Assembly: GCA_046259385.1 (NCBI GenBank)
Contig: JBJYWI010000048.1
Span: 464 to 64,463 of the forward strand
Length of the DNA stretch: 64,000 bases
From: Anaerolineales bacterium
Lineage (GTDB): Bacteria; Chloroflexota; Anaerolineae; Anaerolineales; UBA4823
Direction of reading: 5' to 3'
Below, one piece after another: positions 7,280 through 56,668 of the stretch (position 1 is the first letter of the stretch; each line of letters opens with the position of its first letter). The position numbers and the translations under genes are program-made. The notes under the pieces are model-generated. The model made no database searches. It was not told the DNA's origin and saw only the letters and a program-made list of their open reading frames with translations.

Positions 7280-7538
7280 ATTGGTTTCTACAGGATTTGG
7301 TAAGGCGATAATCGCGATTATTACTATCGCAACTATTTTTTAGGATGGTCTCGAGCCACGCAAGCGCTGACCATTTGGCGATATACCATCCTTTTTTTAA
7401 TTCAACTGATTTAGCATTGTTCATATCTTGGTTTATTATGGGATAACCAGCCTTGCGATCCTTCGATCTTACAGGCTGGCCATCCCTATTTGGGCTCCTG
7501 TTGAGAGATTATCCATTTCAAATCCTAATTTACAGGGA

Positions 7539-8192
7539 TTAATCTAGTGATCCGGTTTTTATATGTGCCATAAACTCTGCCCGCGTTTTATCATTTTCCT
7601 TAAAGCATCCAAGCATTTTACTGGTGACCATCTTGGTGTTATCTTTTTTAACGCCGCGCATCATGGCGCACATATGGGCGCCTTCTACAACTACAGCAAC
7701 ACCCTGAGGGGCGAGGGTCTCCTGGATAAAATTTGCTATCTGGGAGGTCATTTGCTCCTGGATCTGCAGGCGCCTGGCGAACATCTCCACGATTCGTGGG
7801 ATTTTGCTTAAACCGATAACCTTACCGTCCGGAATGTAAGCTACATGCGCCTTTCCGTAAAATGGCAGCATATGGTGCTCGCACATGCTGTAGAAATCGA
7901 TGTCTTTGACCACTACCATTTCGTCGTAATCCACATTAAAAACTGCGCCGTTGATCATTTTCACGGGATCGATTTGATAACCGCTGGTCAGCTCGTGATA
8001 CATTCTGGCTACCCGGTTGGGCGTGTTTAACAGACCCTCCCTTTCCGGGTTTTCGCCAATATTTGAAAGTATGTTGTACACAGCTACTTCAATATTTCCC
8101 TGATTCAGCCAGGTTGGCTGGTTTGAGTTACTACTGAGGCTTTTGTCCAATTCTTCTTCCAGTAAAAGACTATTAGATTTTGTTAAATTCAT
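7539..8192 (-). CDS. folE: GTP cyclohydrolase I
   Basis: 217 aa with the CEHHMLPF zinc/active-site motif and [13 protein letters not shown]. Confidence 0.93.
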
Positions 8193-8231
8193 TTCTACCT
8201 TCCTGTTGATCTATCAATAAAATATTTGTAT

Positions 8232-9068
8232 TTATTTTGCTTTGATACATGAAAAGCCGACCACTCCCGGTCCGATGTTCGCGCCTAATGCCGGGGTAAC
8301 GTCAACTGAAAGAGGTTCTATACCTGGTGGAAAAAGGTCTCTGGATATCTCTTGCAGATGTTCAGCTTTGGAGGGAGCGTTTGTATGGACCAGATCCAGG
8401 CGTTCAAAATTGCCGAGTTCGCGCGCAAGTTGGAGCAATCTGCTGATCGCTCGGCTGTAAGTGCGGACACGCTCACCGGTCGGATCGCCTTCGTGCATTT
8501 TTAAGATGGGTTTAACGCGTAGGATATTACCCAATCTGGCAACAACCCCGCTCATGCGACCGCTGCGCTGCAGGTAATCGAGGGTTTCAAGCGCTGCAAA
8601 AACATAAGTCCTAGAGTTCAACTCGTCCAGACGGGCGATGATATTTTCCATCGTTTCATTTTCCTGGGCAGCTTCCGCAGCTGCTATAACAAGGTAGCCC
8701 ATTCCTAGGCTAAGCTGACGGGAGTCGTATATTGTAACTGGCGCTGTATCAAACTGTTTCGCAGCTGTTCGGGCGACATTCACAGTGGCGCTCAGGCTCT
8801 CAGATATATGTATGGATAAAATTTGATTCGCTCCCTCATCAACTAATTTACTGTATGCCCGCTGGAACATATCCACTCCAGGAGTAGCGGTCGTGGGCAG
8901 GGGGTCAGCGTCAATCATTCGCTCGTAAAATTCTTTGCGTGAAATTTCTACCTGGTCCAGGTAACCTTGATCACCGAAATTAATGAACAAAGGAACGGTT
9001 TCTATTCCAAACTTGTTTATGATTTCTTGCGGTAAATCATTTGTGCTGTCAGCTACAATTCTGATCAT
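8232..9068 (-). CDS. DegV family fatty-acid-binding protein
   Basis: 278 aa. N-terminal IRIVADSTNDLPQE and overall DegV pattern. Confidence 0.85.
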   Translation of the reverse strand: MIRIVADSTNDLPQEIINKFGIETVPLFINFGDQGYLDQVEISRKEFYERMIDADPLPTTATPGVDMFQRAYSKLVDEGANQILSIHISESLSATVNVARTAAKQFDTAPVTIYDSRQLSLGMGYLVIAAAEAAQENETMENIIARLDELNSRTYVFAALETLDYLQRSGRMSGVVARLGNILRVKPILKMHEGDPTGERVRTYSRAISRLLQLARELGNFERLDLVHTNAPSKAEHLQEISRDLFPPGIEPLSVDVTPALGANIGPGVVGFSCIKAK

Positions 9069-9176
9069 CGCTCACTCCTCCTGCGTTTCATTATTTAGGA
9101 ATTATCCTACCATTTTATATTAGTAATTTTGTATATGCCATTTTATTCTGTGGTTAAAAAATAAACCCTTCCTGTG

Positions 9177-9210
9177 GAACCGGGCGGCAGTTATTTCTGC
9201 CACCCGGTTC
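9177..9210 (-). terminator. Stem-loop downstream of the fasciclin gene (candidate intrinsic terminator)
   Basis: GAACCGGGCGGCAG-ttattt-CTGCCACCCGGTTC, 13 of 14 bp paired. On the minus strand a T-rich run (TTTATTTTTT) follows about 11 nt 3' of the stem. Lies between the fasciclin stop (9294) and the degV start (9068). Confidence 0.55.
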
Positions 9211-9293
9211 TGGCGATCCGGAATTATTGTGTGTTTTTGATGTGTTATCCGGGCGCCATCAAATAGGAGGAGAGAAAATGTTTGTATTGCCCC

Positions 9294-10700
9294 TTAGGGT
9301 AGTAATACCGCATCTATCACATGAATTACGCCGTTAGAAGCTTCGATGTCAGGAATGATCACTGCAGAATCGTTTACTTTCAGTATTTCACCGTCCAGGC
9401 TAATCAGAATGTTTTCGCCTGAAAGCATCTCAACTTCCTGTCCTGCGAGTTCGATCGCCTGTGTTGACATCACCTTGCCTTCAAGAACGTGGTATAGAAG
9501 GAGATTTGTGAGCGCTTCTTTATCTGCAATTAATTCATCCAATGCTCCTTCAGGCAGTGCTGCAAAGGCATCATCCGTCGGCGCAAATACGGTGAATGGT
9601 CCTTCCGACTGCAACGCTTCAACCAGTTCTGCCTCTTGTAGAGCGGTCACCAGGGTGGTGAAACGACCATCTTCAACTGCGATCTCGACGATTGTTTTGT
9701 TTTCTTCCATCGCTTCGTCAGCCGGAGGCAGCAGTACTGAGTCAATGACGTGAATAACGCCGTTAGAGGCTTCGATGTCAGGAATGATCACTTTCGATTC
9801 ATTGATCAAAACATTTTCACCATCCAGAGCAACCATAATCTTGTCTCCGGAAAGCGTCTCGACTTCCTGCCCATCGAGATCAATAACATCAGCCGCCATC
9901 ACCTTACCGTCAACGACGTGGTAGAGGAGGACATTTGTAAGAGCTTCTTTGTCCGCCAGAAGCCCTTCCACTGTCCCTTCTGGTAAAGCAGCAAAAGCGT
10001 CATCGGTAGGCGCAAATACAGTGAAAGGTCCTTCAGCCTGCAGTGCTTCAACTAGCTCGGCTTCCTGCAGCGCGGTCACCAAGGTAGTAAATCGGCCGTC
10101 TTCGACTGCGATATCAACGATTGATCTGCTTTCTTCCATCATCTCTTCGCCTTCAATTGGCGGCAGAATAACAGAATCAATCACGTGAATTACACCATTA
10201 GAGCCAACAATGTCAGTTGCGACAACTTTAGCATCGTTGATCATTACATTCTCGCCATCAACGGTAACCTTGAACATCTTACCTGACATAGTTTCGACGT
10301 CCTGACCGTTCAATCCGATTGCATCAGCTGCCAGAACTTCAGCCCCAACTACATGGTAAAGGAGAATATTCTTGAGGGCTTCTGGATCTTCTAGCAAACT
10401 TTCTACAGTTCCTTCAGGAAGGGCTGCAAAAGCTTCATCTGTAGGGGCAAAGACCGTAAAAGGACCGTCTCCCTGCAGGGTCTCAACCAGACCGGCAGCC
10501 TGGAGGGCAGTAACCAGGGTTGAAAAATTACCATCAGCAACTGCAATATCGACAATTGTTGGAGGAGTTTCTTCAACCGGCTCTTCTGTTACCTCTTCAA
10601 CAGGCGGCTCAGTTGGCTCTGGTGTTGGCGCTGCGCCAGCGCAGGCTGCCAGCACTAATGAGACTAAAACGATTATCGAGGGGATTGTATATTTCTTCAC
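9294..10700 (-). CDS. Lipoprotein with three tandem FAS1 (fasciclin) domains
   Basis: Start moved to GTG 10700 (AGGAG 5 nt upstream), giving [20 protein letters not shown] with lipobox LAAC. Each repeat carries [18 protein letters not shown] and [10 protein letters not shown]. Confidence 0.88.
9297..10559 (-). repeat. Three in-frame FAS1 repeat units of about 133 codons (10559-10158, 10121-9723, 9692-9297)
   Basis: Units 2 and 3 are roughly three-quarters identical at protein level by eye (IV[DE][25 protein letters not shown][AS][20 protein letters not shown]). Unit 1 is more diverged. Confidence 0.85.
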
Positions 10701-10748: not shown

Positions 10749-10770
10749 TTGCAAAGGTATTGTACACATT
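10749..10770 (-). promoter_or_regulatory. Two phased 11-bp CarH-type repeats overlapping a TTGCAA -35-like box upstream of the fasciclin gene
   Basis: The minus strand reads AATGTGTACAA TACCTTTGCAA. Both fit nAnnTnn(A/G)CAn. The second differs by 1 nt from the repeat TAACTTTGCAA at 12625. Only two repeats, not three. Confidence 0.3.
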
Positions 10771-10945
10771 TATTTATATTTGTCAAGATTTGGCAAAGGT
10801 TTTTTGGGATTAATCTTTTTTAATCTTTATCCATAAAAAATTTTCTTTAGAGATCTTCGATTGGTAACTAGAAAGAAATTTATGTTTATATTGGCAGTTT
10901 GTTTCCGGTTTTGGGTTTTGTTTTCGTCTTAATCTTAAGCAGATT

Positions 10946-12576: not shown

Positions 12577-12624
12577 CTGAAATAAGAACTAAAAGATTAT
12601 TACCCTTGAGTTAGCGAGCCCTTA

Positions 12625-12657
12625 TAACTTTGCAAAACATTGACAAAATATTTACAT
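12625..12657 (+). promoter_or_regulatory. Candidate CarH-type operator O1: three tandem 11-bp direct repeats
   Basis: TAACTTTGCAA / AACATTGACAA / AATATTTACAT at 12625, 12636 and 12647. All three fit nAnnTnn(A/G)CAn in exact 11-bp phase. The middle repeat contains the -35 TTGACA. Confidence 0.6.
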
Positions 12658-12668
12658 TATGATATAAG
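12640..12668 (+). promoter_or_regulatory. Sigma-70-type promoter (TTGACA-17 nt-TGaTATAAG)
   Basis: -35 TTGACA at 12640-12645, 17-nt spacer, TG extension at 12660-12661, -10 TATAAG at 12663-12668. Lies 26 nt upstream of ATG 12695. Confidence 0.55.
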
Positions 12669-20421: not shown

Positions 20422-20956
20422 GGAGCATTTGTTGAGTAAGGGTCGAAATGCGCATAAAGATTACCTGGAAAAAGTCCTATTCCGATCCGTACAGCTTGCA
20501 GCATGATGAATGGTTAGCCAGTGGTTATCTCATTGTAGTACCCCTATGAGGATGGACGTCTTTTTTTACGCAGCTTAAAATCAGCATGATTGTTGAATAA
20601 TTGCACATCGATCATAGCTGTGGTTTCGAATTCACCGTGGATCAGCCTTCTTACTGTGGGAATCGCGGGCAGGCAAAGCCCGAATTGATAAAGCGATCGG
20701 ATTAGAAATCGCGATTATTCTGGAACCCAGCCAGATTTACGCCAGGGAAAACCCAGATCGCATGTCCAAACTGGATCACATAATAAAGGCTGAAAAGGTT
20801 TACCCTTGAGTTTGTGTTAATCAATTAGCCCAGGAAGCTGCACCAATAACGCAAGCATTTATTGGATTTTTTTAACCTTAGCTAGATCATTTACCCAACC
20901 CTTCGAAATTTAAAATACAAACGCCTGCCCCAAAATAAATGTTTAAATCCCCTTCA

Positions 20957-20989
20957 AATTTGCGCAAAAAATGTGCAAATACTTGACAA
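20957..20989 (+). promoter_or_regulatory. Candidate CarH-type operator O2: three tandem 11-bp direct repeats upstream of the carH-like gene
   Basis: AATTTGCGCAA / AAAATGTGCAA / ATACTTGACAA at 20957, 20968 and 20979, in exact 11-bp phase. Fit nAnnTnn(A/G)CAn, with one deviation at position 2 of repeat 3. Repeat 3 contains the -35 TTGACA. Confidence 0.6.
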
Positions 20990-21011
20990 AACAACCTAAG
21001 TAATATAAACT
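20983..21011 (+). promoter_or_regulatory. Sigma-70-type promoter candidate for the carH-like gene
   Basis: TTGACA at 20983-20988. -10 candidates are TAAACT (17-nt spacer) or TATAAA (15-nt spacer). About 50 nt upstream of GTG 21061. Confidence 0.4.
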
Positions 21012-21060
21012 TATTCCGATTTAACTAAATTATCAATGCAAGAGAAAAAAGGTGAATTAA

Positions 21061-22377
21061 GTGGCAGAGATCAGTATTATTCCGACTTACAACTTAAAAG
21101 TGGTATTGAAGGAGACCGGGATAAAAGCGGACACATTACGGGCATGGGAACGCCGTTACGGTTTACCCCACCCTGACCGTACGGACGGCGGGCACCGTCT
21201 TTATTCGCAGTACGACATCAAGACCATTAGGTGGTTGCAGGCTCGTATTGATGAGGGACTCCGCATAAACCGGGCGGTCAAATTATGGCGCGGTATAGAA
21301 GAGTCTGGTCGGGACCCATTGCTAGAAATGCCTTTAGTGGATGCAGTTCGAGAACCCCAGCCATTTCCGGCTGTTTTGGGAGCATCAATCGTTGATCTAC
21401 GTAATCATTGGGTTGAAGCCTGTATGGATTTCAATGAAAGACAAGCGGAATACATCCTCGCACAGGCTTTTGCGAGTTATTCTGTTGAAGTAGTCTGTCT
21501 CGATATTATGGGAGCGGGTATATCTGAAATTGGAAAGCGCTGGTATCAGGGTAAAAGTACTGTGCAGCAGGAACATTTCGCTTCATCTCTGATTGTCAGG
21601 CGTTTAAATACTCTGATCTCAGCTGCTCCAGCGCCTACAAGAAGCGAGTGTGTTCTGGTTGCCTGCCCGCCACAGGAAGACCACATCATTTCCCCACTAA
21701 TGGTTACTTTGTTCCTGCGAAGAAGGGGGTTGAATGTTATTTATCTAGGAGCGAATGTCCCAATTGAGCGATTGGATAATGCGATCGAATCATCTGAATC
21801 CGATTTGGTTATTATGATCGCTCAGCAGTTATTCACCGCTGCGAATCTGCTTGAAGCAGCCCGTTTTATGGAAGAAAAGAACATGGCTTTTGGATTTGGG
21901 GGATTAGTATTTACTCTACTCCCTGAACTCAAGCAGAAAATTCCAGGCCATTATCTGGGCGATAAGCTGGATAGTGCGGTCAGTGTAATTGAGGATATTT
22001 TATTACGCCATCCATCTATCGATTCAAGTATCTCAGTGCCTGATAAATACTTAAAATCATGGAAGAAATTTACTGATCAGCAACCCCAAATAGAGGCGCA
22101 CCTGCGGGGAGTAATACAAAGAAATGGGATGCATGAAAGCCATCTCGAAATTGCCAACGAATACCTTGGACTTGATATAAGCGCTGCGCTGAGTCTTGGG
22201 GATATGGGACTGCTTAGCGAAGAGATCAACTGGGTGAAATTCCTACTCAAGAATTACGCGGTGCCTGTGGAACGGTTGCATGAGTACTTAGCACATTTCG
22301 GTAAAGCGATAGAGTTATATATGGAAGATGACGGAAAACCGATCCTGGAATGGTTAGACAGTGTGGAAGTGAGCTGA
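21061..22377 (+). CDS. MerR-family, cobalamin-binding light-responsive regulator (CarH/LitR-like) with about 130-aa C-terminal extension
   Basis: GTG start with AAAGGTGA SD. N-terminal MerR HTH (YNLKVVLKETGIKADTLRAWERRYGLPHP). Wx9EH motif (RWYQGKSTVQQEHF). B12 lower-ligand motif ExH in VLVACPPQEDHIISPLMV, followed by a Rossmann-type B12 domain. 438 aa versus about 290-300 aa for characterised CarH proteins (recollection). Confidence 0.8.
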   Translation: MAEISIIPTYNLKVVLKETGIKADTLRAWERRYGLPHPDRTDGGHRLYSQYDIKTIRWLQARIDEGLRINRAVKLWRGIEESGRDPLLEMPLVDAVREPQPFPAVLGASIVDLRNHWVEACMDFNERQAEYILAQAFASYSVEVVCLDIMGAGISEIGKRWYQGKSTVQQEHFASSLIVRRLNTLISAAPAPTRSECVLVACPPQEDHIISPLMVTLFLRRRGLNVIYLGANVPIERLDNAIESSESDLVIMIAQQLFTAANLLEAARFMEEKNMAFGFGGLVFTLLPELKQKIPGHYLGDKLDSAVSVIEDILLRHPSIDSSISVPDKYLKSWKKFTDQQPQIEAHLRGVIQRNGMHESHLEIANEYLGLDISAALSLGDMGLLSEEINWVKFLLKNYAVPVERLHEYLAHFGKAIELYMEDDGKPILEWLDSVEVS

Positions 22378-22472
22378 CCCTGTAATTCTATTTTTGATTT
22401 GATTCCAATACAGATCAAATGGAAATCTGTGATGCGAAATCGAAATATTGAAAAAGGTTTATGGAGGATACG

Positions 22473-23411
22473 ATGATTGTCGTTACCGGAGGTTCGGGTT
22501 ATATCGGTAGCCATATAGTCAAGAGATTAGCCAGCGAGGGGAGACATGTCCGCGCTATGATTCGCAGCCGGCAGCGAACATTACAGGAAAGCCGCCTGGC
22601 TGGATTCGATATAGAACTAGTTGAGGCGGATGTAACTGATGCAGATTCATTAAAACCCGCCTTTACGAAAGCAGATGCGGTCATCCATACTGTTGCAATC
22701 GCGATCGAAAGAGAAGGTACTACATATGAGGAAATAAATTTGATGGGTACAGTGAATGTCCTCCGAGCAGCCCGGGATGCCGGTATCCAGAGATTCATCA
22801 ACTTATCCCAGTTAGGAGCGGATTCGGGGCTTCCGTACCGATTCTTGGCATCGAAAGGCAGAGCCCAGGAGTATGTAGCCCGTTCGGAATTGGATTGGAC
22901 TGCGTTTCGACCATCAGTGATATGGGGTCCGGAAGACGAGTTCGCGAATACATTTGCCAGGTTGATCCTGATAACTCCGATTATCTTTCCGAATGTTGAC
23001 AAAAAAGCCAGGTTTCAGCCGCTCTGGGTTGAAGACCTGGTTACCTGCATCTTCAAGTCGCTGGAAGATAAAAATACATACCGCCAGCAATATGAAATTG
23101 GCGGTCCAGAGATACTGACCCTTGAAGAGATTGAGAGACGCACTCTAGAAGCGATGGGTACTCGAAGAATTATGGTCCCATTTCCGAAACCTCTATTGAA
23201 AACTGCAGTTGGGCTGATTGAAAAAGTGCTGCCTAACCCTCCGGTAACTCAAAGTCTGCTCGAATTGCTTCAAGTTGATAATGTCACCAGCGAAAACACT
23301 GTTTATCAATTCGTTGAAAACCCGAAGGCATTCACGCCTGATGCAATAAAGGGTTATATGCAGGAATTTAAAGCGCGCGATACGCTATCGCAATACCTCG
23401 GGCGATCATAG
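22473..23411 (+). CDS. NAD(P)H-binding atypical SDR (NDUFA9/NmrA-like epimerase family)
   Basis: Start at M5 of the track ORF (GGAGGA SD). MIVVTGGSGYIGSHIV. Confidence 0.8.
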   Translation: MIVVTGGSGYIGSHIVKRLASEGRHVRAMIRSRQRTLQESRLAGFDIELVEADVTDADSLKPAFTKADAVIHTVAIAIEREGTTYEEINLMGTVNVLRAARDAGIQRFINLSQLGADSGLPYRFLASKGRAQEYVARSELDWTAFRPSVIWGPEDEFANTFARLILITPIIFPNVDKKARFQPLWVEDLVTCIFKSLEDKNTYRQQYEIGGPEILTLEEIERRTLEAMGTRRIMVPFPKPLLKTAVGLIEKVLPNPPVTQSLLELLQVDNVTSENTVYQFVENPKAFTPDAIKGYMQEFKARDTLSQYLGRS

Positions 23412-23432
23412 AACTGTGGGGTTTTCATCAAT

Positions 23433-23876
23433 ATGAAGATTTATAAGCACGAATTCAGGGTAACCGCACCCGTAGCTGAGGTGGCGGAGTTTCACGGCGA
23501 CACTCGGGCGCTGAAATTACTCACGCCACCCCCTTTAGTGGTCAAATTCCATGAGGTGGAAAGTTTAGCTGAAGGCTCACTCTCTGATTTTACATTCTGG
23601 TTGGGACCAATCCCTGTACGCTGGAAAGCCATCCATAAAGATGTGGACTTAAATTCGGGCTTTAAGGATATTCAACTTGAAGGGCCTTTCAAATTCTGGG
23701 AGCATACTCATACTTTCTTAGAAAGTGAATCCGATCGAACGATCGTCAGGGATGAGATCAAAGCTGAGTTCAGCAATCATCCTTACCGGAGATTGGTTTG
23801 CCGGATGATGTGGGCAAATCTGCCAGGCCTTTTTGCTTACCGAAAATCGAGAACGAAATTAGCGCTTGAACCATGA
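23433..23876 (+). CDS. SRPBCC (START/cyclase-dehydrase fold) ligand-binding protein
   Basis: 147 aa. Size and pattern are typical of SRPBCC. Stop overlaps the next start (ATGA at 23873-23876). Confidence 0.55.
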   Translation: MKIYKHEFRVTAPVAEVAEFHGDTRALKLLTPPPLVVKFHEVESLAEGSLSDFTFWLGPIPVRWKAIHKDVDLNSGFKDIQLEGPFKFWEHTHTFLESESDRTIVRDEIKAEFSNHPYRRLVCRMMWANLPGLFAYRKSRTKLALEP

Positions 23877-25426
23877 AAAGAGTTGTTGTTATTGGGGCGG
23901 GTTTCGGCGGACTGACAACTGCAGCTGAAATAGCTAGGCAGGGTCTGGATGTGACTGTGCTCGAGGCGCATGTGTATCCTGGAGGCAGCGCTGGAACTTT
24001 TTTCCATCAAGGTTATCTTTTTGATGCCGGGGCAACTTTAGCAGGAGGATTTGCTGAAGGCGCGCCTATGAATATGCTGGGCAGCAGGTTTGATATAGAC
24101 TGGCAGGAAAAATATGTAAAAGAAGCTATGGTTGTCCATCTTCCGGATGGAGAAACGGTGACCCGCTGGACGGATGATGGTCGCTGGCGTGAAGAGAGAA
24201 CTTCTGTTTTTGGAACGGATGCAGAACCATTCTGGAATTGGCAGGAGCGAACAGCTGAAGGTCTATGGGATTTAGCCCAGCGAAATCCTGAATGGCCTCC
24301 ACAGTCGGTAAGAGGTGCTATCAATTTACTCCAGACTGGTTACTCATGGTTGAGTGCCCGCCGGTTGGATAAAAGAGAAATTAACTTAACTGCATATATG
24401 CCATATATGTTCCTGCCGGTTTCTTCAAAAATGAAAAACATCCCCGACCTCCTGCGATTGTATATTAACGGCCAACTTTTAATCTCCGCGCAGGATACAA
24501 GCGATAAGGTCAACGCCCTCTACGGTGCTGCGGCGCTTGACCTGCCCAGAAGAGGTGTGGCGAATGTTCCTGGGGGGATGGGGGGTATGGCTAAAAAACT
24601 TGTCGAAAGGGTAGTGAACTATGGGGGAAAAGTAATATTCAGAAAGGAAGTAATTAGTGTTTCGGATTTTTCTGATAAAAAATTTTTAATCCGCACTAAA
24701 CGGGGTGGGGAATATATTTCGGATGCGGTTGTCTTTAACCAGACTCCCTGGAATGTGGCGAAACTATTGGAGACGCAAGAATACAGGAAGCTGAATACTC
24801 TTGGTGAGCTCCCCAGGGATAACTGGGGCGCCTTTGTTGTTTACGCCGGCATAGATTCCAAAGGTGTACCGGATAATTTCCCCGAGCACCACCAGGTAAT
24901 CCATTCAGAACCTTTAGGTGAAGGAAATAGCATTTTCCTGTCAATTTCTCCAGCCTGGGACAATACCCGTGCTCCGGAAGGAAAACGGTCGATCACGATA
25001 TCAACACACACCAGACTGGATACATGGTGGCGTTTATATCGAAATAGCCGTCCAGAATATGAAGACCGTAAATCGCGCTACATTGAGAGGATTCTCAATG
25101 TGGCTGAGCAGGCATTCCCCGGTATTAAATCATATGCAGAAATGTTACTCCCTGGTTCGCCGGTCACATTCGAACGGTTTACGCGAAGGGAAAAAGGCTG
25201 GGTTGGAGGTTTTCCGCAAACCAGCCTATTCCGTACTTGGGGACCAAAAATTGCTCCCGGAATATGGATAGTTGGCGATTCAATATTCCCCGGACAGTCC
25301 GTGCCAGCAGTTGTGTTAGGAGGATTGCGAGTTGCAGATGGATTGATGGGGGAACTGGCTTATAGAAATCAGAAATCCTGGTTCTACAAACAGGGGAAAA
25401 CCGGTGAGATTCAATGCGCCGGATGA
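23873..25426 (+). CDS. CrtI/phytoene-desaturase-family FAD-dependent oxidoreductase (CrtD/CrtH/UfaD-like)
   Basis: N-terminal dinucleotide fold VVVIGAGFGGLTTAAEIARQGLDVTVLEAHVYPGGSAGTF. 517 aa. C-terminal GDSIFPGQSVPAV. Confidence 0.8.
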   Translation: MKRVVVIGAGFGGLTTAAEIARQGLDVTVLEAHVYPGGSAGTFFHQGYLFDAGATLAGGFAEGAPMNMLGSRFDIDWQEKYVKEAMVVHLPDGETVTRWTDDGRWREERTSVFGTDAEPFWNWQERTAEGLWDLAQRNPEWPPQSVRGAINLLQTGYSWLSARRLDKREINLTAYMPYMFLPVSSKMKNIPDLLRLYINGQLLISAQDTSDKVNALYGAAALDLPRRGVANVPGGMGGMAKKLVERVVNYGGKVIFRKEVISVSDFSDKKFLIRTKRGGEYISDAVVFNQTPWNVAKLLETQEYRKLNTLGELPRDNWGAFVVYAGIDSKGVPDNFPEHHQVIHSEPLGEGNSIFLSISPAWDNTRAPEGKRSITISTHTRLDTWWRLYRNSRPEYEDRKSRYIERILNVAEQAFPGIKSYAEMLLPGSPVTFERFTRREKGWVGGFPQTSLFRTWGPKIAPGIWIVGDSIFPGQSVPAVVLGGLRVADGLMGELAYRNQKSWFYKQGKTGEIQCAG

Positions 25427-25450
25427 GTGAATTCTGAAAGGAGAAGAAAT

Positions 25451-26401
25451 ATGAAAGTAGGTATTGTAGGCGCAGGACAGGTAGGTGCTACGGCAGCCTA
25501 TTCACTTGTAATGCGTGGAATCGGGCGTGAGTTGATCCTGGTTGATATAAATAACCAGCGCGCAAAGGCGGAAGCAGATGATATTCTGCATGCAGTTCCT
25601 TTTGCTCACCCGCTTCAGATTTCAGCTGGCGGGTACTCTGACCTGAGCGGTTGCCGGGTTGTGGTTATAACAGCCGGCGCAGCTCAAAAACAGGGGGAAA
25701 CCCGTTTGCAGCTCCTGGAGCGCAACGCGGCGATCTTCAGTCAGATTATTCCCCGGGTACTTGAGAACGCCTCGGATGCAGTTCTGCTGGTTGCAACCAA
25801 TCCAGTGGATGTCTTAACCCATCTGACAGCCCATATCGCCTCCGGGTACAGTGTCCCCAGCTCACGGGTGATTGGTTCCGGAACCACACTTGATACTGCC
25901 CGTTTCCGGGCACTTCTGGGACAGCACCTTGGTATTGACCCGCCGCATGTCCATGGTTATGTCCTGGGCGAACATGGCGATTCCGAAGTTTTAACCTGGT
26001 CCCTGGTGAAGGTAGGTGGTGTGCCTCTCGCCGAATTCTGCCGCCAGTGGGATATATGCACAGATGAAAAGGTTCAGCAGGATATAACAAATTGGGTTCG
26101 CAATGCTGCATACTCGATTATTGAAGGCAAGGGTAGCACCAATTTTGGGATCGGCAGCGCGCTTACGAGGATTGTGGAGGTGATACTGGGGAACCAAAGG
26201 TCCCTGCTTACAGTTTGCACTCCCATTAAACGGGTGGCAGGGGTAGAAAACGTCACCATATCAATGCCCCATCTTATTGGTGGCAGCGGAATTATGGATA
26301 CTATCCTGCTGCCGCTTGCTTTGAATGACGAGGAAGAGGCAGCATTGCACAGCTCGGCGAAAACGGTAAAAGAGGCGATTGATACTCTTGATTTGAGGTA
26401 G
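25451..26401 (+). CDS. ldh: L-lactate dehydrogenase
   Basis: Start at M9 of the track ORF (AAAGGAGAAG SD). [16 protein letters not shown] signature LGEHGDSEV. Gln at the substrate-specificity position ([11 protein letters not shown]). Confidence 0.85.
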
Positions 26402-26410
26402 GGTTTTTCT

Positions 26411-27838
26411 ATGCAGGCGATTTCTATATGGTGGATCAGGCGTGACCTGAGACTTTCTGATAACCATACTCTTAATGCTGCGATAAATTATTCCGAGCAG
26501 GTTGTTCCGCTGTTTATTATCGACCCCAAGCTGGTTTCTTCAGAACGGGTTGGCTCGAAAAGGTTGGAATTTTTATGGGGAGGTCTGGCTGAGCTGGATA
26601 GATCATTGCGTGAACGTGGCAGCCGTCTGGTTATTCGAAAAGGATCGCCTCTTGAGATATTAACGACTGTGATTGATGAGTGTGGAGCTTCGAAAATATT
26701 CGCGGAGGCTGACTATTCTGCCTATGCCCGCCAACGAGATAAAAAGATCGCTCAAAATCTTCCACTGGTTCTTATGGGTTCGCCGGGAGTGTCAGCACCG
26801 GGTCAGGTGCTTAAGTTGGATGGTTCCCCCTACACTGTGTTTACGCCATATAAAAAAAGATGGTTGTCTGAAGTCCTGCCTTTGGATAGTGATATATTGC
26901 CAGTTCCCGAACAAATCAAATCGCCGGACAAGTTATTTGGCGAGGATATATCAAACCGGTTAAATTCGGCGGATACGATTGGATTTTTACCCGGTGAAAA
27001 TGAAGCTCTCCAGCGGCTTCAGAGATTCACCCGAATTGATAATGGCGCCATTTTTATGTATTCCGCTGAGCGGGATCGTATGGACCTAGAAGGGACTTCC
27101 AAGCTATCTCCTTATCTTAAATTCGGAATGATTTCTGCCAGTCGAGCAGTGAGTAATGCTGTTGAGTTGATTGATTCTGTTCCAGGGGGCACGGCTCAGA
27201 AAAGTGCTGAGACCTGGTTGAACGAGTTGATCTGGCGTGATTTCTACATTTCTATCTTGTATCACTTTCCCTTTGTGGCGGATACGAGCTTTAGAGCTGA
27301 TATGAGGAATATCCGCTGGGTGAATTCCCACTGGGAGTTTAAACAGTGGTGCCAAGGACAGACCGGGTATCCCGTGGTTGATGCCGGGATGCGCCAGCTT
27401 GCCCAAACCGGCTGGATGCACAACCGGGCCAGGATGATCACTGCCTCTTTCCTAGTCAAGGATTTGTTGATCGATTGGCGTTGGGGGGAGGCTTGGTTCA
27501 TGAAGCAACTGATCGATGGTGATCCGGCTGCAAACAACGGAGGGTGGCAGTGGACTGCCGGCACAGGAACGGATGCTGCGCCTTATTTCCGAATTTTTAA
27601 CCCGGTAACCCAGGGAATAAAATTTGATCCTTCGGGTGTCTATATCCGCCGGTGGGTGCCTGAACTTCAAAATGTTCCAGACAAATATATCCATAAGCCC
27701 TGGGAAATGCCGGTGGATACTCAATTATCATGTGGCTGCCGAATTGGAACGGATTATCCTGAGCCGTTAGTCGATCACATCTTCGCACGCCAAAGGGCTC
27801 TTGAAACGTATAAAACTGCCAAAGTGCAAAATAGGTGA
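26411..27838 (+). CDS. phr: Deoxyribodipyrimidine photo-lyase (class I CPD photolyase)
   Basis: 475 aa with TSKLSPYLKFGMIS, WRDFY, GWMHNRARMITASFLVKDL, DGDPAANNGGWQWTAGTGTDAAPYFRIFNP. Confidence 0.92.
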   Translation: MQAISIWWIRRDLRLSDNHTLNAAINYSEQVVPLFIIDPKLVSSERVGSKRLEFLWGGLAELDRSLRERGSRLVIRKGSPLEILTTVIDECGASKIFAEADYSAYARQRDKKIAQNLPLVLMGSPGVSAPGQVLKLDGSPYTVFTPYKKRWLSEVLPLDSDILPVPEQIKSPDKLFGEDISNRLNSADTIGFLPGENEALQRLQRFTRIDNGAIFMYSAERDRMDLEGTSKLSPYLKFGMISASRAVSNAVELIDSVPGGTAQKSAETWLNELIWRDFYISILYHFPFVADTSFRADMRNIRWVNSHWEFKQWCQGQTGYPVVDAGMRQLAQTGWMHNRARMITASFLVKDLLIDWRWGEAWFMKQLIDGDPAANNGGWQWTAGTGTDAAPYFRIFNPVTQGIKFDPSGVYIRRWVPELQNVPDKYIHKPWEMPVDTQLSCGCRIGTDYPEPLVDHIFARQRALETYKTAKVQNR

Positions 27839-27844
27839 TTACTT

Positions 27845-28369
27845 GTGAAAATTTTTAACCGGAAGGATATTACTGAAAAGAAGACCGAAACTCACTTAAA
27901 CAACCATGCCCCCGATTTTTCCGCGAAGGATATTGATGGAAATATGATAGCCCTTTCACAATTCCGGGATAAGAAAAATGTATTCCTGGTATTTAATCGA
28001 GGCTTTACATGACCTTACTGCCGAAGGCATATGGCGCAGTTGCGCCGTGATTACGAAAAGTTTAAAGAAAGGGGAGTCGAGGTCATTATAGTTGGTCCGG
28101 AAGAAGAAGAGGTTTTCAGATACCATTGGAAAAAGGGTGAATATCCATTTGTTGGAATCGCTGATCCAGACCATAAAATTGCGGATTTATACAACCAACA
28201 GGTCAAAATATTAAAAATGGGCCGGATGCCGGCTCAAGTAATTATTGATAAGGATGGTTTCATCAGATCCCAACATCACGGAGTTTCGATGCGTGACATC
28301 CTTGAAAATACAACTGTTTTGAATCTATTTGACAAAATTAACTCAGAGAATGAGATCATTAATTATTAA
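27845..28369 (+). CDS. Peroxiredoxin-like/redoxin (AhpC-TSA fold) selenoprotein candidate, UxxC active site (TGA 28010-28012 read as Sec)
   Basis: GTG 27845 lies 6 nt after an AGGTGA SD. Hand translation: VKIFNRKDITEKKTETHLNNHAPDFSAKDIDGNMIALSQFRDKKNVFLVFNRGFT-U-PYCRRHMAQLRRDYEKFKERGVEVIIVGPE... The TGA occupies the first Cys of the redoxin CxxC motif. The track lists only the 3' part (28031..28369). Confidence 0.7.
28031..28048 (+). promoter_or_regulatory. SECIS-like hairpin 18 nt downstream of the in-frame UGA
   Basis: AUGGCGC-AGUU-GCGCCGU: 7-bp stem (one G-U pair) and a 4-nt loop containing GU. A smaller UGCC-GAA-GGCA hairpin precedes it. Confidence 0.5.
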
Positions 28370-28433: not shown

Positions 28434-28907
28434 TTGATAGGGAATTCTGTGAGCGAACTAAGAACAGAGAAGTTGCATGTTGAGTTGTTGGATGGCATAG
28501 GAGAAGATGGACCAGTAATGCCAAGAAGGTATACTCTGACCCATTCAGACAGAACAGGGGATTTATTTCTCAGTATTGGACCAGATTACAATCATCCTCA
28601 GATATCAGGTTTATATACTCGATTGATGCGTGATGAGGTGCTGGCTGAATGGGTTCTTGATGGAAATGATGTGCAATTAATCATTCATTGTCATGTAAGC
28701 GGAGGCTTTGCATTTGGCCCTGCCAGCTGGCGGATGTCTATATTCAGGCAGCATTTACCGATGGTGATTACGGCTTTTAAATTCGGTGATTCGGATTTAT
28801 TTGCTGCACATCAGGAATTAAGCAAATCGAGAGTTTCCATCCATTTCCACTCGGTTCAGGACAGGTATAACATCGTTGAAGATTGGGGATCGATAGACAA
28901 CTTTTAG
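28434..28907 (+). CDS. Stay-Green (SGR) family protein, Mg-dechelatase homolog
   Basis: PRRYTLTHSDRTGDLFLSIG ... RLMRDEVLAEWV ... LIIHCHVSGGFAFG ... FRQHLPMVITAF parallels plant SGR (PRTYTLTHSDIT..., YRDEVVAEW, HVHCHISGG, ELPVVLKAF) as I recall it. The start (TTG 28434 or GTG 28449) is uncertain. Confidence 0.75.
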   Translation: MIGNSVSELRTEKLHVELLDGIGEDGPVMPRRYTLTHSDRTGDLFLSIGPDYNHPQISGLYTRLMRDEVLAEWVLDGNDVQLIIHCHVSGGFAFGPASWRMSIFRQHLPMVITAFKFGDSDLFAAHQELSKSRVSIHFHSVQDRYNIVEDWGSIDNF

Positions 28908-48510: not shown

Positions 48511-49104
48511 ATGTCCAAAATTGAAGATCGTGAAATAGTAAAACAGCTTCAGGAAGGTAGTCTGGAAGCCCTTGGTGTGCTTTATAACAGGCACCGCAAC
48601 CTGGTTTACCGGACAGCGCTTGCGATTACCGGAGATGTTGATACAGCAAGCGACTTGCTGCAGGATGTATTTTTGAGGCTCTACCGTTTTGCGGATCGAA
48701 TCGACCGCTCCCGGCCTCTGGAACCCTGGCTTTACAGGATGACAACCAATCTAGCCTACACCTGGGTAAAAAGAAACAAACGCTGGCTGCATTCGCTTGA
48801 TGATCTCGCTGAGTGGCTGGTAGGGACTAGCAAAAACACTTTGCTAGAAACTGTGGAACATAACGATGATTGGGACCAGGTGCAGAATGCTGTCACCAAA
48901 CTGCCATTCCCGCAGCGTGTGGTGGTTGTACTGTATTACCTGAATGACCTGCCTCTGCAGGAGATTGCCGATATCCTTGAAGTTCCAGTTGGAACCGTGA
49001 AATCGCGACTGTATTATGGTCGTTTAGCATTAAAGAAAAGTCTCGGAATTGGCTTGTTCGGAGCAAGCGATACCCACCCCAAATTGAATTATAAAGGCAC
49101 TTGA
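48511..49104 (+). CDS. ECF-subfamily RNA polymerase sigma factor
   Basis: 197 aa. Region 2 DLLQDVFLRLY. Region 4 HTH LPLQEIADILEVPVGTVKSRLYYGR. Confidence 0.9.
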   Translation: MSKIEDREIVKQLQEGSLEALGVLYNRHRNLVYRTALAITGDVDTASDLLQDVFLRLYRFADRIDRSRPLEPWLYRMTTNLAYTWVKRNKRWLHSLDDLAEWLVGTSKNTLLETVEHNDDWDQVQNAVTKLPFPQRVVVVLYYLNDLPLQEIADILEVPVGTVKSRLYYGRLALKKSLGIGLFGASDTHPKLNYKGT

Positions 49105-56595: not shown

Positions 56596-56668
56596 AGGGG
56601 CGTGGTGTAAAGGTAGCACAGCGGTCTTTGGAACCGTATGTCCTGGTTCGACTCCGGGCGCCCCTGCC
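56596..56668 (+). tRNA. tRNA-Gln (anticodon UUG)
   Basis: Hand-folded cloverleaf. Acceptor AGGGGCG/CGCCCCU. U8. D-arm GUGU-AAAGGUA-GCAC. Anticodon arm GCGGU-CUUUGGA-ACCGU. T-arm CCUGG-UUCGACU-CCGGG. Discriminator G followed by CC; the terminal A is not encoded. Confidence 0.85.

Follow-up and report, generated by a model that had tools for sequence, protein, structure and literature searches.

A predicted three-unit CarH-type operator upstream of a photoglobin-fused, probably B12-dependent regulator gene in an Anaerolineales bacterium

CarH proteins bind to 11-bp repeats arranged in tandem over the -35 or the -10 box (PMC9304148). Three such units are found upstream of a carH-like gene in the window, the whole stretch of 64,000 nucleotides analysed here, which raises the question of whether they form the operator through which the encoded protein controls its own synthesis and, if so, what kind of light sensor would occupy them. 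The 33-bp array at 20957-20989, termed O2, very probably serves as operator for the regulator whose gene begins 72 nt further on, which would be a CarH-like B12-dependent light sensor with an added photoglobin domain. The region contains the following features.

20957..20967, + strand: operator unit 1, AATTTGCGCAA; TnnGCA core, a pseudorepeat under the strict definition; 8.2 bits, 99.92th percentile
20968..20978, + strand: operator unit 2, AAAATGTGCAA; TnnGCA core; 11.8 bits
20979..20989, + strand: operator unit 3, ATACTTGACAA; full TnnACA repeat with embedded -35 box; 13.8 bits
20983..20988, + strand: predicted -35 hexamer TTGACA, a consensus match inside unit 3
21006..21011, + strand: predicted -10 hexamer TAAACT, a consensus match with a 17-nt spacer from the -35
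21050..21054, + strand: Shine-Dalgarno-like AGGTG, 6 nt 5' of the GTG start codon at 21061
21061..22377, + strand: regulator gene, 438 aa; MerR winged helix, four-helix bundle, Rossmann B12 domain and photoglobin-like domain

The sequence-only reading had placed the repeat starts at 20957, 20968 and 20979, and the units are indeed spaced exactly 11 bp apart; the TTGACA that it saw in the third repeat is present at 20983-20988, and the overlap with the predicted -35 box holds. The consensus it gave, nAnnTnn(A/G)CAn, stands in part: the TnnRCA core is exact in all three units, but position 2 of unit 3 is T rather than A, and because of this O2 matches three copies of nAnnTnnRCAn only with one mismatch. 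An exact search for that triple pattern accordingly passes over O2 and retrieves a second site, O1, instead. Under the strict published definition of the repeat, nnnnTnnACAn (PMC9304148), the GCA of units 1 and 2 makes these two pseudorepeats, which leaves unit 3 as the one full repeat. The units share 5-8 of 11 identities pairwise and are thus alike at the motif level only, and since they have no more than the motif core in common O2 yields no direct-repeat family in the output of a generic repeat finder. Rfam finds no RNA element near the array, its sole match being a tRNA at 56596. By consensus prediction, TTGACA-17-TAAACT is the top sigma-70-like match of the region (10 of 12 positions), and transcription would start near 21018, which would place the O2 array at about -61 to -29.

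Three TnnRCA cores in 11-bp phase are found at two places in the 64 kb, 20961 and 12629, where 0.10 occurrences would be expected. For a finer measure, a matrix of the 11-bp unit was built from 106 tandem pairs drawn solely from other genomes (L001-L080). All three O2 units score above the 99.9th percentile of this matrix and together reach 33.8 bits, compared with at most 25.3 bits when the window is simulated 200 times by a first-order Markov model. The in-phase 11-mers that flank O2 score at background, and the array therefore has exactly three units.

The array is also what has been kept in relatives. Five close relatives from the set L081-L086, with regulator proteins of 54-69% identity, were compared, and all five retain the three units 98-104 nt 5' of the start codon in flanks that are otherwise unalignable; in L081, the relative with 69% protein identity, the segment corresponding to 20954-20995 is the sole conserved island of a 640-bp intergenic region. 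The arrays of the relatives read ATTATGCGCAA ATAATGTGCAA ATACTTGACAA, ATTATTGGCAA ATATTGTGCAA ATACTTGACAA, ATTATGCGCAA TAGCTGTACAA ATACTTGACAA and ATTTTGCGCAA ATACTGTGCAA ATACTTGACAA. Unit 3 is identical in five of five relatives, the core of unit 1 is TGCGCAA or TTGGCAA in L081-L086 and that of unit 2 is TGTGCAA or TGTACAA, so that T5, R8, C9, A10 and A11 are invariant in the five relatives and the 'n' positions vary. The -10 box is TAAAAT, TAAACT or TATAAT, with the 17-nt spacing retained. Alignment of orthologous promoters, the comparison that the sequence-only reading had proposed, thus finds the repeats conserved, and the idea of an operator survives it.

The signal extends beyond the close relatives. 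A best upstream score of at least 12/15 for three 11-bp units is reached in 47 of 79 GTDB loci with an orthologue compared with 10 of 342 control segments, and upstream of about 80 orthologues the distance separating TnnRCA cores of the gene strand peaks at 11 bp, where 40 cases are observed and 2.1 expected. In most distant orthologues the unit matrix detects two strong units, not three; the flanking units (-1 and +2) exceed the 95th percentile in 21-22% of sites as opposed to 10% off-phase, and the three-unit array was set aside as a general rule, flanking units being rarely strong in these distant orthologues. An inverted outer unit (TTGTCAA) followed by two direct units is found upstream of the regulator in L003, L004, L006, L021, L030, L040 and L045, which implies that the layout of the operator is plastic across the family.

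A separate observation concerns the DNA between the upstream operon and the regulator, which in relatives carries paired small membrane-protein genes (58 aa plus 32-33 aa) that are tandemly duplicated.

L081 8902-9520; L083 8445-9552; L084 2234-3341; L086 1890-2164 (minus strand): duplicated small membrane-protein gene pairs

A tblastn search detects no trace of them in the window, and as they are absent from it they were rejected as part of the feature.

The regulator gives Pfam matches to MerR_1 (2e-11), B12-binding_2 and B12-binding. Its MerR winged-helix domain comprises residues about 9-78 and includes the RxWERRY motif (R27-A-W-E-R-R-Y33), as defined in PMC9304148, which is invariant in 26 homologues. 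In the four-helix bundle the Wx9EH signature is intact (W161, E171 and H172) and aligns to W131, E141 and H142 of Thermus CarH (residue numbers from PMC11796333), and the Rossmann B12 domain has the axial histidine H208 (E206-x-H208) along with G280-G281. Set against the full D/ExHxxG/P...SxT/V...GG pattern, the regulator has Ser211 in place of G/P and Ala254 in place of Ser, as read from the sequence. The closest solved relatives are the CarH/LitR structures of T. thermophilus (3WHP/5C8D, E 1e-27). The comparison of the DNA-recognition parts with Thermus CarH covered the RxWERRY and wing segments; identity amounts to 28/70 (40%) over the DNA-binding domain and to 19/26 over helix 2, the recognition helix, and the wing segment. 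A homologue search returns thousands of related proteins, the close ones being 436-445 aa long and coming from Chloroflexota metagenomes.

The protein is longer than a CarH, for which a two-domain architecture of about 280-300 aa is typical. A C-terminal domain at about 300-438 (window 21958-22374) adds some 140 residues to the plain CarH architecture, and against the NCBIfam equivalog model for CarH, NF052513, the regulator scores 135.7 bits with a cut-off of 400, aligned over residues 10-256 only. The low score and the presence of a fourth domain in 438 aa make it CarH-like and not a CarH equivalog. The label 'carH-like' which the gene had been given is therefore apt as regards the MerR and B12 domains, their signatures and the best solved relative, but it leaves out the photoglobin domain, with which the protein is no plain CarH. 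The family profile aligns to the photocobilin 8J2Y (E 9e-19) across positions 145-413, and an AF2 model of the regulator (pLDDT 86.6) superposes in Foldseek on chain 8J2Y_A with a TM of 0.85 and an rmsd of 3.2 Å over 333 columns, and on 8J2W with a TM of 0.77. The profile match and the superposition on photocobilins identify the additional C-terminal domain as a photoglobin. In the modelled regulator a CarH-like B12 domain is thus followed by a five-helix globin-like domain packed against it, which makes the protein a photoglobin-bearing CarH relative of the photocobilin type.

It is proposed that in the dark the cofactor-loaded protein would oligomerise via its B12 domains and set its MerR-type winged-helix domains along the same face of the DNA, one per 11-bp unit. 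By covering the -35 box together with promoter DNA further upstream, the complex would exclude RNA polymerase and so repress the regulator's own gene along with the downstream NDUFA9-like, CrtD-like and photolyase genes. Light would cleave the Co-C bond, upon which the oligomer would fall apart and the promoter would open, the expected outcome being negative autoregulation combined with light induction of the operon; the dark-state autorepression put forward in the sequence-only reading is thus kept as a prediction. In this scheme we infer that the protein binds at all and that its effect is negative, and also its cofactor, its reaction to light and its stoichiometry; the last of these may be regarded as the weakest step of the mechanism, the choice lying between the tetramer mode of Thermus CarH and dimers, either those of the photocobilins or the two of Cystobacter CarH.

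The most serious alternative accepts O2 as a real site bound by the regulator but assumes a signal or an assembly unlike that of CarH, for example two cooperative dimers, a red/far-red response through a bilin or the sensing of B12 supply, and it is possible, if rather doubtful. The C-terminal domain superposes on photocobilins (8J2Y, as above), and the two characterised photocobilins form head-to-tail dimers in the dark and bind both AdoCbl and biliverdin, the latter extending their response to red light (PMC10979010). Thermus CarH engages its three repeats with three of its four DNA-binding domains; as photocobilins are dimeric and not tetrameric in the dark this binding mode may not apply here, and with the photoglobin fusion both the oligomeric state and the light colour may differ from those of CarH. 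Cystobacter CarH dimers provide a precedent in that they bind such arrays as two cooperating dimers (PMC9304148). On the other side, the odd number of units in O2 suits the tetramer mode of Thermus better than two symmetric dimers. As regards a bilin, the invariant W391 aligns with SasPcob Trp296, which contacts both chromophores, whereas the position of Asp270, which is key for biliverdin binding in SasPcob (PMC10979010), appears from alignment offsets to be occupied by an invariant Asn (N366) here. No heme oxygenase gene is found among the scanned window ORFs of at least 120 aa or the called genes of L081-L086, and cobalamin genes are likewise not among the scanned window ORFs of at least 120 aa.

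It is very unlikely that units 1 and 2 are instead a single palindromic operator, ATTTGCGCA-N5-TGTGCAAAT, that is bound by a dimer, possibly of a different regulator, and in which the 11-bp phasing is incidental. The generic repeat finder does report inverted arms at 20958-20966 and 20972-20980 that are complementary at 8 of 9 positions, the stretch TTGCGCAA inside unit 1 is itself a palindrome, and the inverted TTGTCAA unit upstream of two direct units in some orthologues could be taken in the same sense. The palindromic reading is weakened because the complementarity of the arms drops to 6/9 in L081 (counted by eye) while the core positions of the direct repeat are invariant; moreover, unit 3 and O1 are without such symmetry, and the signal seen family-wide is one of 11-bp direct phasing.

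Many proteins of the MerR family, to which the DNA-binding domain is assigned, are activators of transcription, and MerR-type activation involves over-long spacers of 19-20 bp with the dyad within the spacer. That the regulator binds to O2 but activates from it, in MerR fashion or as a light-state activator, is nevertheless highly improbable: the array covers the -35 box, the optimal 17-bp spacer and near-consensus hexamers (10/12) leave no need for an activator, and the characterised CarH proteins are repressors (PMC9304148). Finally, it is barely credible that the array arose by chance where an A+T-rich promoter combines, for instance, a UP-like A/T tract with a -35 box. The region is A+T-rich, the units agree at only 5-8 of 11 positions and no direct-repeat family is detected, but the simulations, the independently built matrix and the position-specific conservation in five relatives with unalignable flanks all speak against it.

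If O2 is a three-unit operator of the CarH-like regulator, as is preferred here, it is probably not the only one, and two further sites in the window come into consideration.

12625..12657, + strand: second operator O1, TAACTTTGCAA AACATTGACAA AATATTTACAT; 39.3 bits, the top score in the window
10749..10801, - strand: candidate third operator O3, AACCTTTGCCA AATCTTGACAA, a 9-bp gap, then AATGTGTACAA TACCTTTGCAA; 23.2 and 18.2 bits

The same regulator probably controls O1, which is placed just 3' of a photolyase-related DPRP gene, is followed downstream by a SDR-DoxX-ABC-FtsX-CrtC-like-DUF2867 gene row (ABC denoting a transporter and the CrtC-like protein being a lipocalin) and is conserved in L081 and L083. 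Its -35 TTGACA lies in unit 2 and its unit 3 within the spacer, as in Thermus, and the -10 was read by eye as TGaTATAAG (12660-12668). Control of O3 by the regulator can be suggested only with a perhaps. On its own this site is borderline, with pairs that score 23.2 and 18.2 bits against a 95% simulated maximum of 22.1, and it has a 2+2 unit layout in which the starts of the pairs are 20 bp apart, not 22. It covers TTGACA-16-TACAAT upstream of a fasciclin-domain lipoprotein gene whose start is likely the GTG at 10700 and not the listed ATG at 10769. A fasciclin gene in L014 is also preceded by a tandem site. An identical 13-mer, TTACCCTTGAGTT, is present on the + strand at 12600-12612 and 20800-20812, 26 and 158 bp before O1 and O2, respectively; it was discarded as a second regulatory site as it is absent from all 86 related loci.

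The genes behind O2 form a probable transcription unit.

22461..27838, + strand: probable co-transcribed genes for an NDUFA9/NmrA-like NAD-binding protein, a 147-aa protein, a CrtD-like desaturase, an LDH/MDH-like protein and a CPD photolyase
28218-28236: terminator-like hairpin, 3' of the photolyase gene

The same gene order is found in L081 and L083-L085. The NDUFA9-family gene (22461-23411) stands behind the regulator gene not only in the window but in every close relative, and its Thermus counterpart (L087 2928-3210) has 29% identity to the window homologue (E 2e-9); by gene order it is a conserved partner of the regulator locus. Across all loci 120 tandem pairs are found where simulations give 29-43, a threefold excess, and for 67% of them an ORF begins within the next 250 nt, compared with 25% of random positions. 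In related Chloroflexota loci the genes behind tandem sites encode the regulator itself, CrtI-like proteins, phytoene synthase, heliorhodopsin, UvrC and NDUFA9-like proteins, and by predicted function the gene set behind O2 is one that resembles a light-protection regulon.

Several neighbouring genes deserve mention in their own right. A heliorhodopsin gene (PF18761, E 2e-104) immediately precedes the regulator gene, in the same orientation, in two Chloroflexia MAGs (L046 5034-5908 and L062 5026-), and these heliorhodopsin genes are themselves preceded by a tandem-unit site, an arrangement which suggests that a light-induced heliorhodopsin is co-transcribed with the sensor in L046 and L062. 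L040 has a uvrC gene behind such a site (minus strand; reverse-complement coordinates 7496-9513), and this gene is divergently oriented to that of the regulator. The window has a Staygreen-family gene (PF12638, E 3e-46; 28434-28907, + strand) just 3' of the photolyase gene, and L083 and L084 have one at the same position. An ECF-type sigma factor gene (48511-49104, + strand) lies 27 kb from the operator and displays no sign of a link to the light regulon.

The predicted operator itself is of the ordinary CarH kind, and because CarH operators are already well understood O2 alone would be an expected feature. What is new is the cognate regulator, a CarH relative of the photocobilin type with a fused photoglobin, for which DNA target and regulon are, as far as could be found, undescribed. 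O2 thereby becomes a concrete candidate for the DNA target of the widespread and uncharacterised MerR-B12-photoglobin regulators of Chloroflexota, with a plausible regulon of carotenoid genes and two photolyase-type genes, joined in relatives by heliorhodopsin and uvrC. A more far-reaching proposal, which is offered tentatively, is that O2 and the genes behind such sites would give a photocobilin-type (MerR + B12 + photoglobin) factor its first defined DNA target and regulon: a factor that might use two tetrapyrrole chromophores, might occupy CarH-style repeats with a stoichiometry other than that of the CarH tetramer, for instance as cooperating dimers, and might induce the genes for carotenoids, photolyase, heliorhodopsin and UvrC in Anaerolineae that are not phototrophic, under broader light colours than CarH. 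A 33-bp operator that is close to that of Thermus could also serve in optogenetics, provided that, owing to the photoglobin domain, the response is not confined to green light.

Among known systems, the photocobilins (SasPcob, 8J2W/8J2X; AbPcob, 8J2Y) share with the regulator a B12 domain followed by a C-terminal globin-like domain and give the best full-length structural superposition. AbPcob, which binds AdoCbl, additionally has, as read from the alignment, the same D/ExHxxS pattern, with Ser after the axial His, and also the same W-Y pair. Unlike the regulator, the solved photocobilins have no DNA-binding domain, one being stand-alone and the other fused to a diguanylate cyclase, and where SasPcob has the key biliverdin-binding Asp, the weak binder AbPcob has a His and the present regulator apparently an Asn. 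The combination of MerR-HTH, B12 and photoglobin domains has been catalogued computationally (Schneider et al. 2022; PMC8717448), and in the searchable literature no report was found of a DNA target for this MerR-fused form. The operators of the myxobacterial and Bacillus megaterium CarH proteins resemble O2 in their plastic arrangement of 11-bp full repeats and pseudorepeats over the -35 or -10 box, and operators with one or two full repeats plus pseudorepeats still bind (PMC9304148), but they consist of four or five units whereas O2 has exactly three.

The nearest parallel is the crtB-carH intergenic operator of Thermus CarH (LitR; 5C8D/5C8E), which consists of three tandem 11-bp repeats, one of them with the -35 box (PMC9304148), in agreement with what the sequence-only reading had said of this system. 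Both regulators have the RxWERRY motif, the Wx9EH signature and the axial His, and in both cases three tandem 11-bp units, one containing the -35 TTGACA, stand upstream of the regulator's own gene, with photolyase, carotenoid and NDUFA9-like genes nearby. The two differ in that the regulator described here has 438 aa and an extra photoglobin domain, in that the residue after the Trp is Tyr instead of the His which forms the bis-His light state of Thermus CarH (PMC9304148), and in that the -35 box lies in unit 3 of O2 but in unit 2 in Thermus; two of the O2 units also carry GCA, and the host phylum is Chloroflexota. A 3.2-kb carH-containing locus of a T. thermophilus plasmid (AP031329.1, L087) served for direct comparison, in which carH has phytoene synthase and photolyase genes on one side and ldrP and an NDUFA9-family gene on the other. 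When applied to this locus, the matrix derived from Chloroflexota picks out GAAATGTACAA AAACTTGACAA AACCTATACGT directly upstream of carH with 27.9 bits, the next best site scoring 7.3, and GAAATGTACAA AAACTTGACAA is identical to O2 units 2-3 at 19 of 22 positions. The recovery of a near-identical Thermus site by a Chloroflexota matrix therefore points to an operator logic that is common to both phyla.
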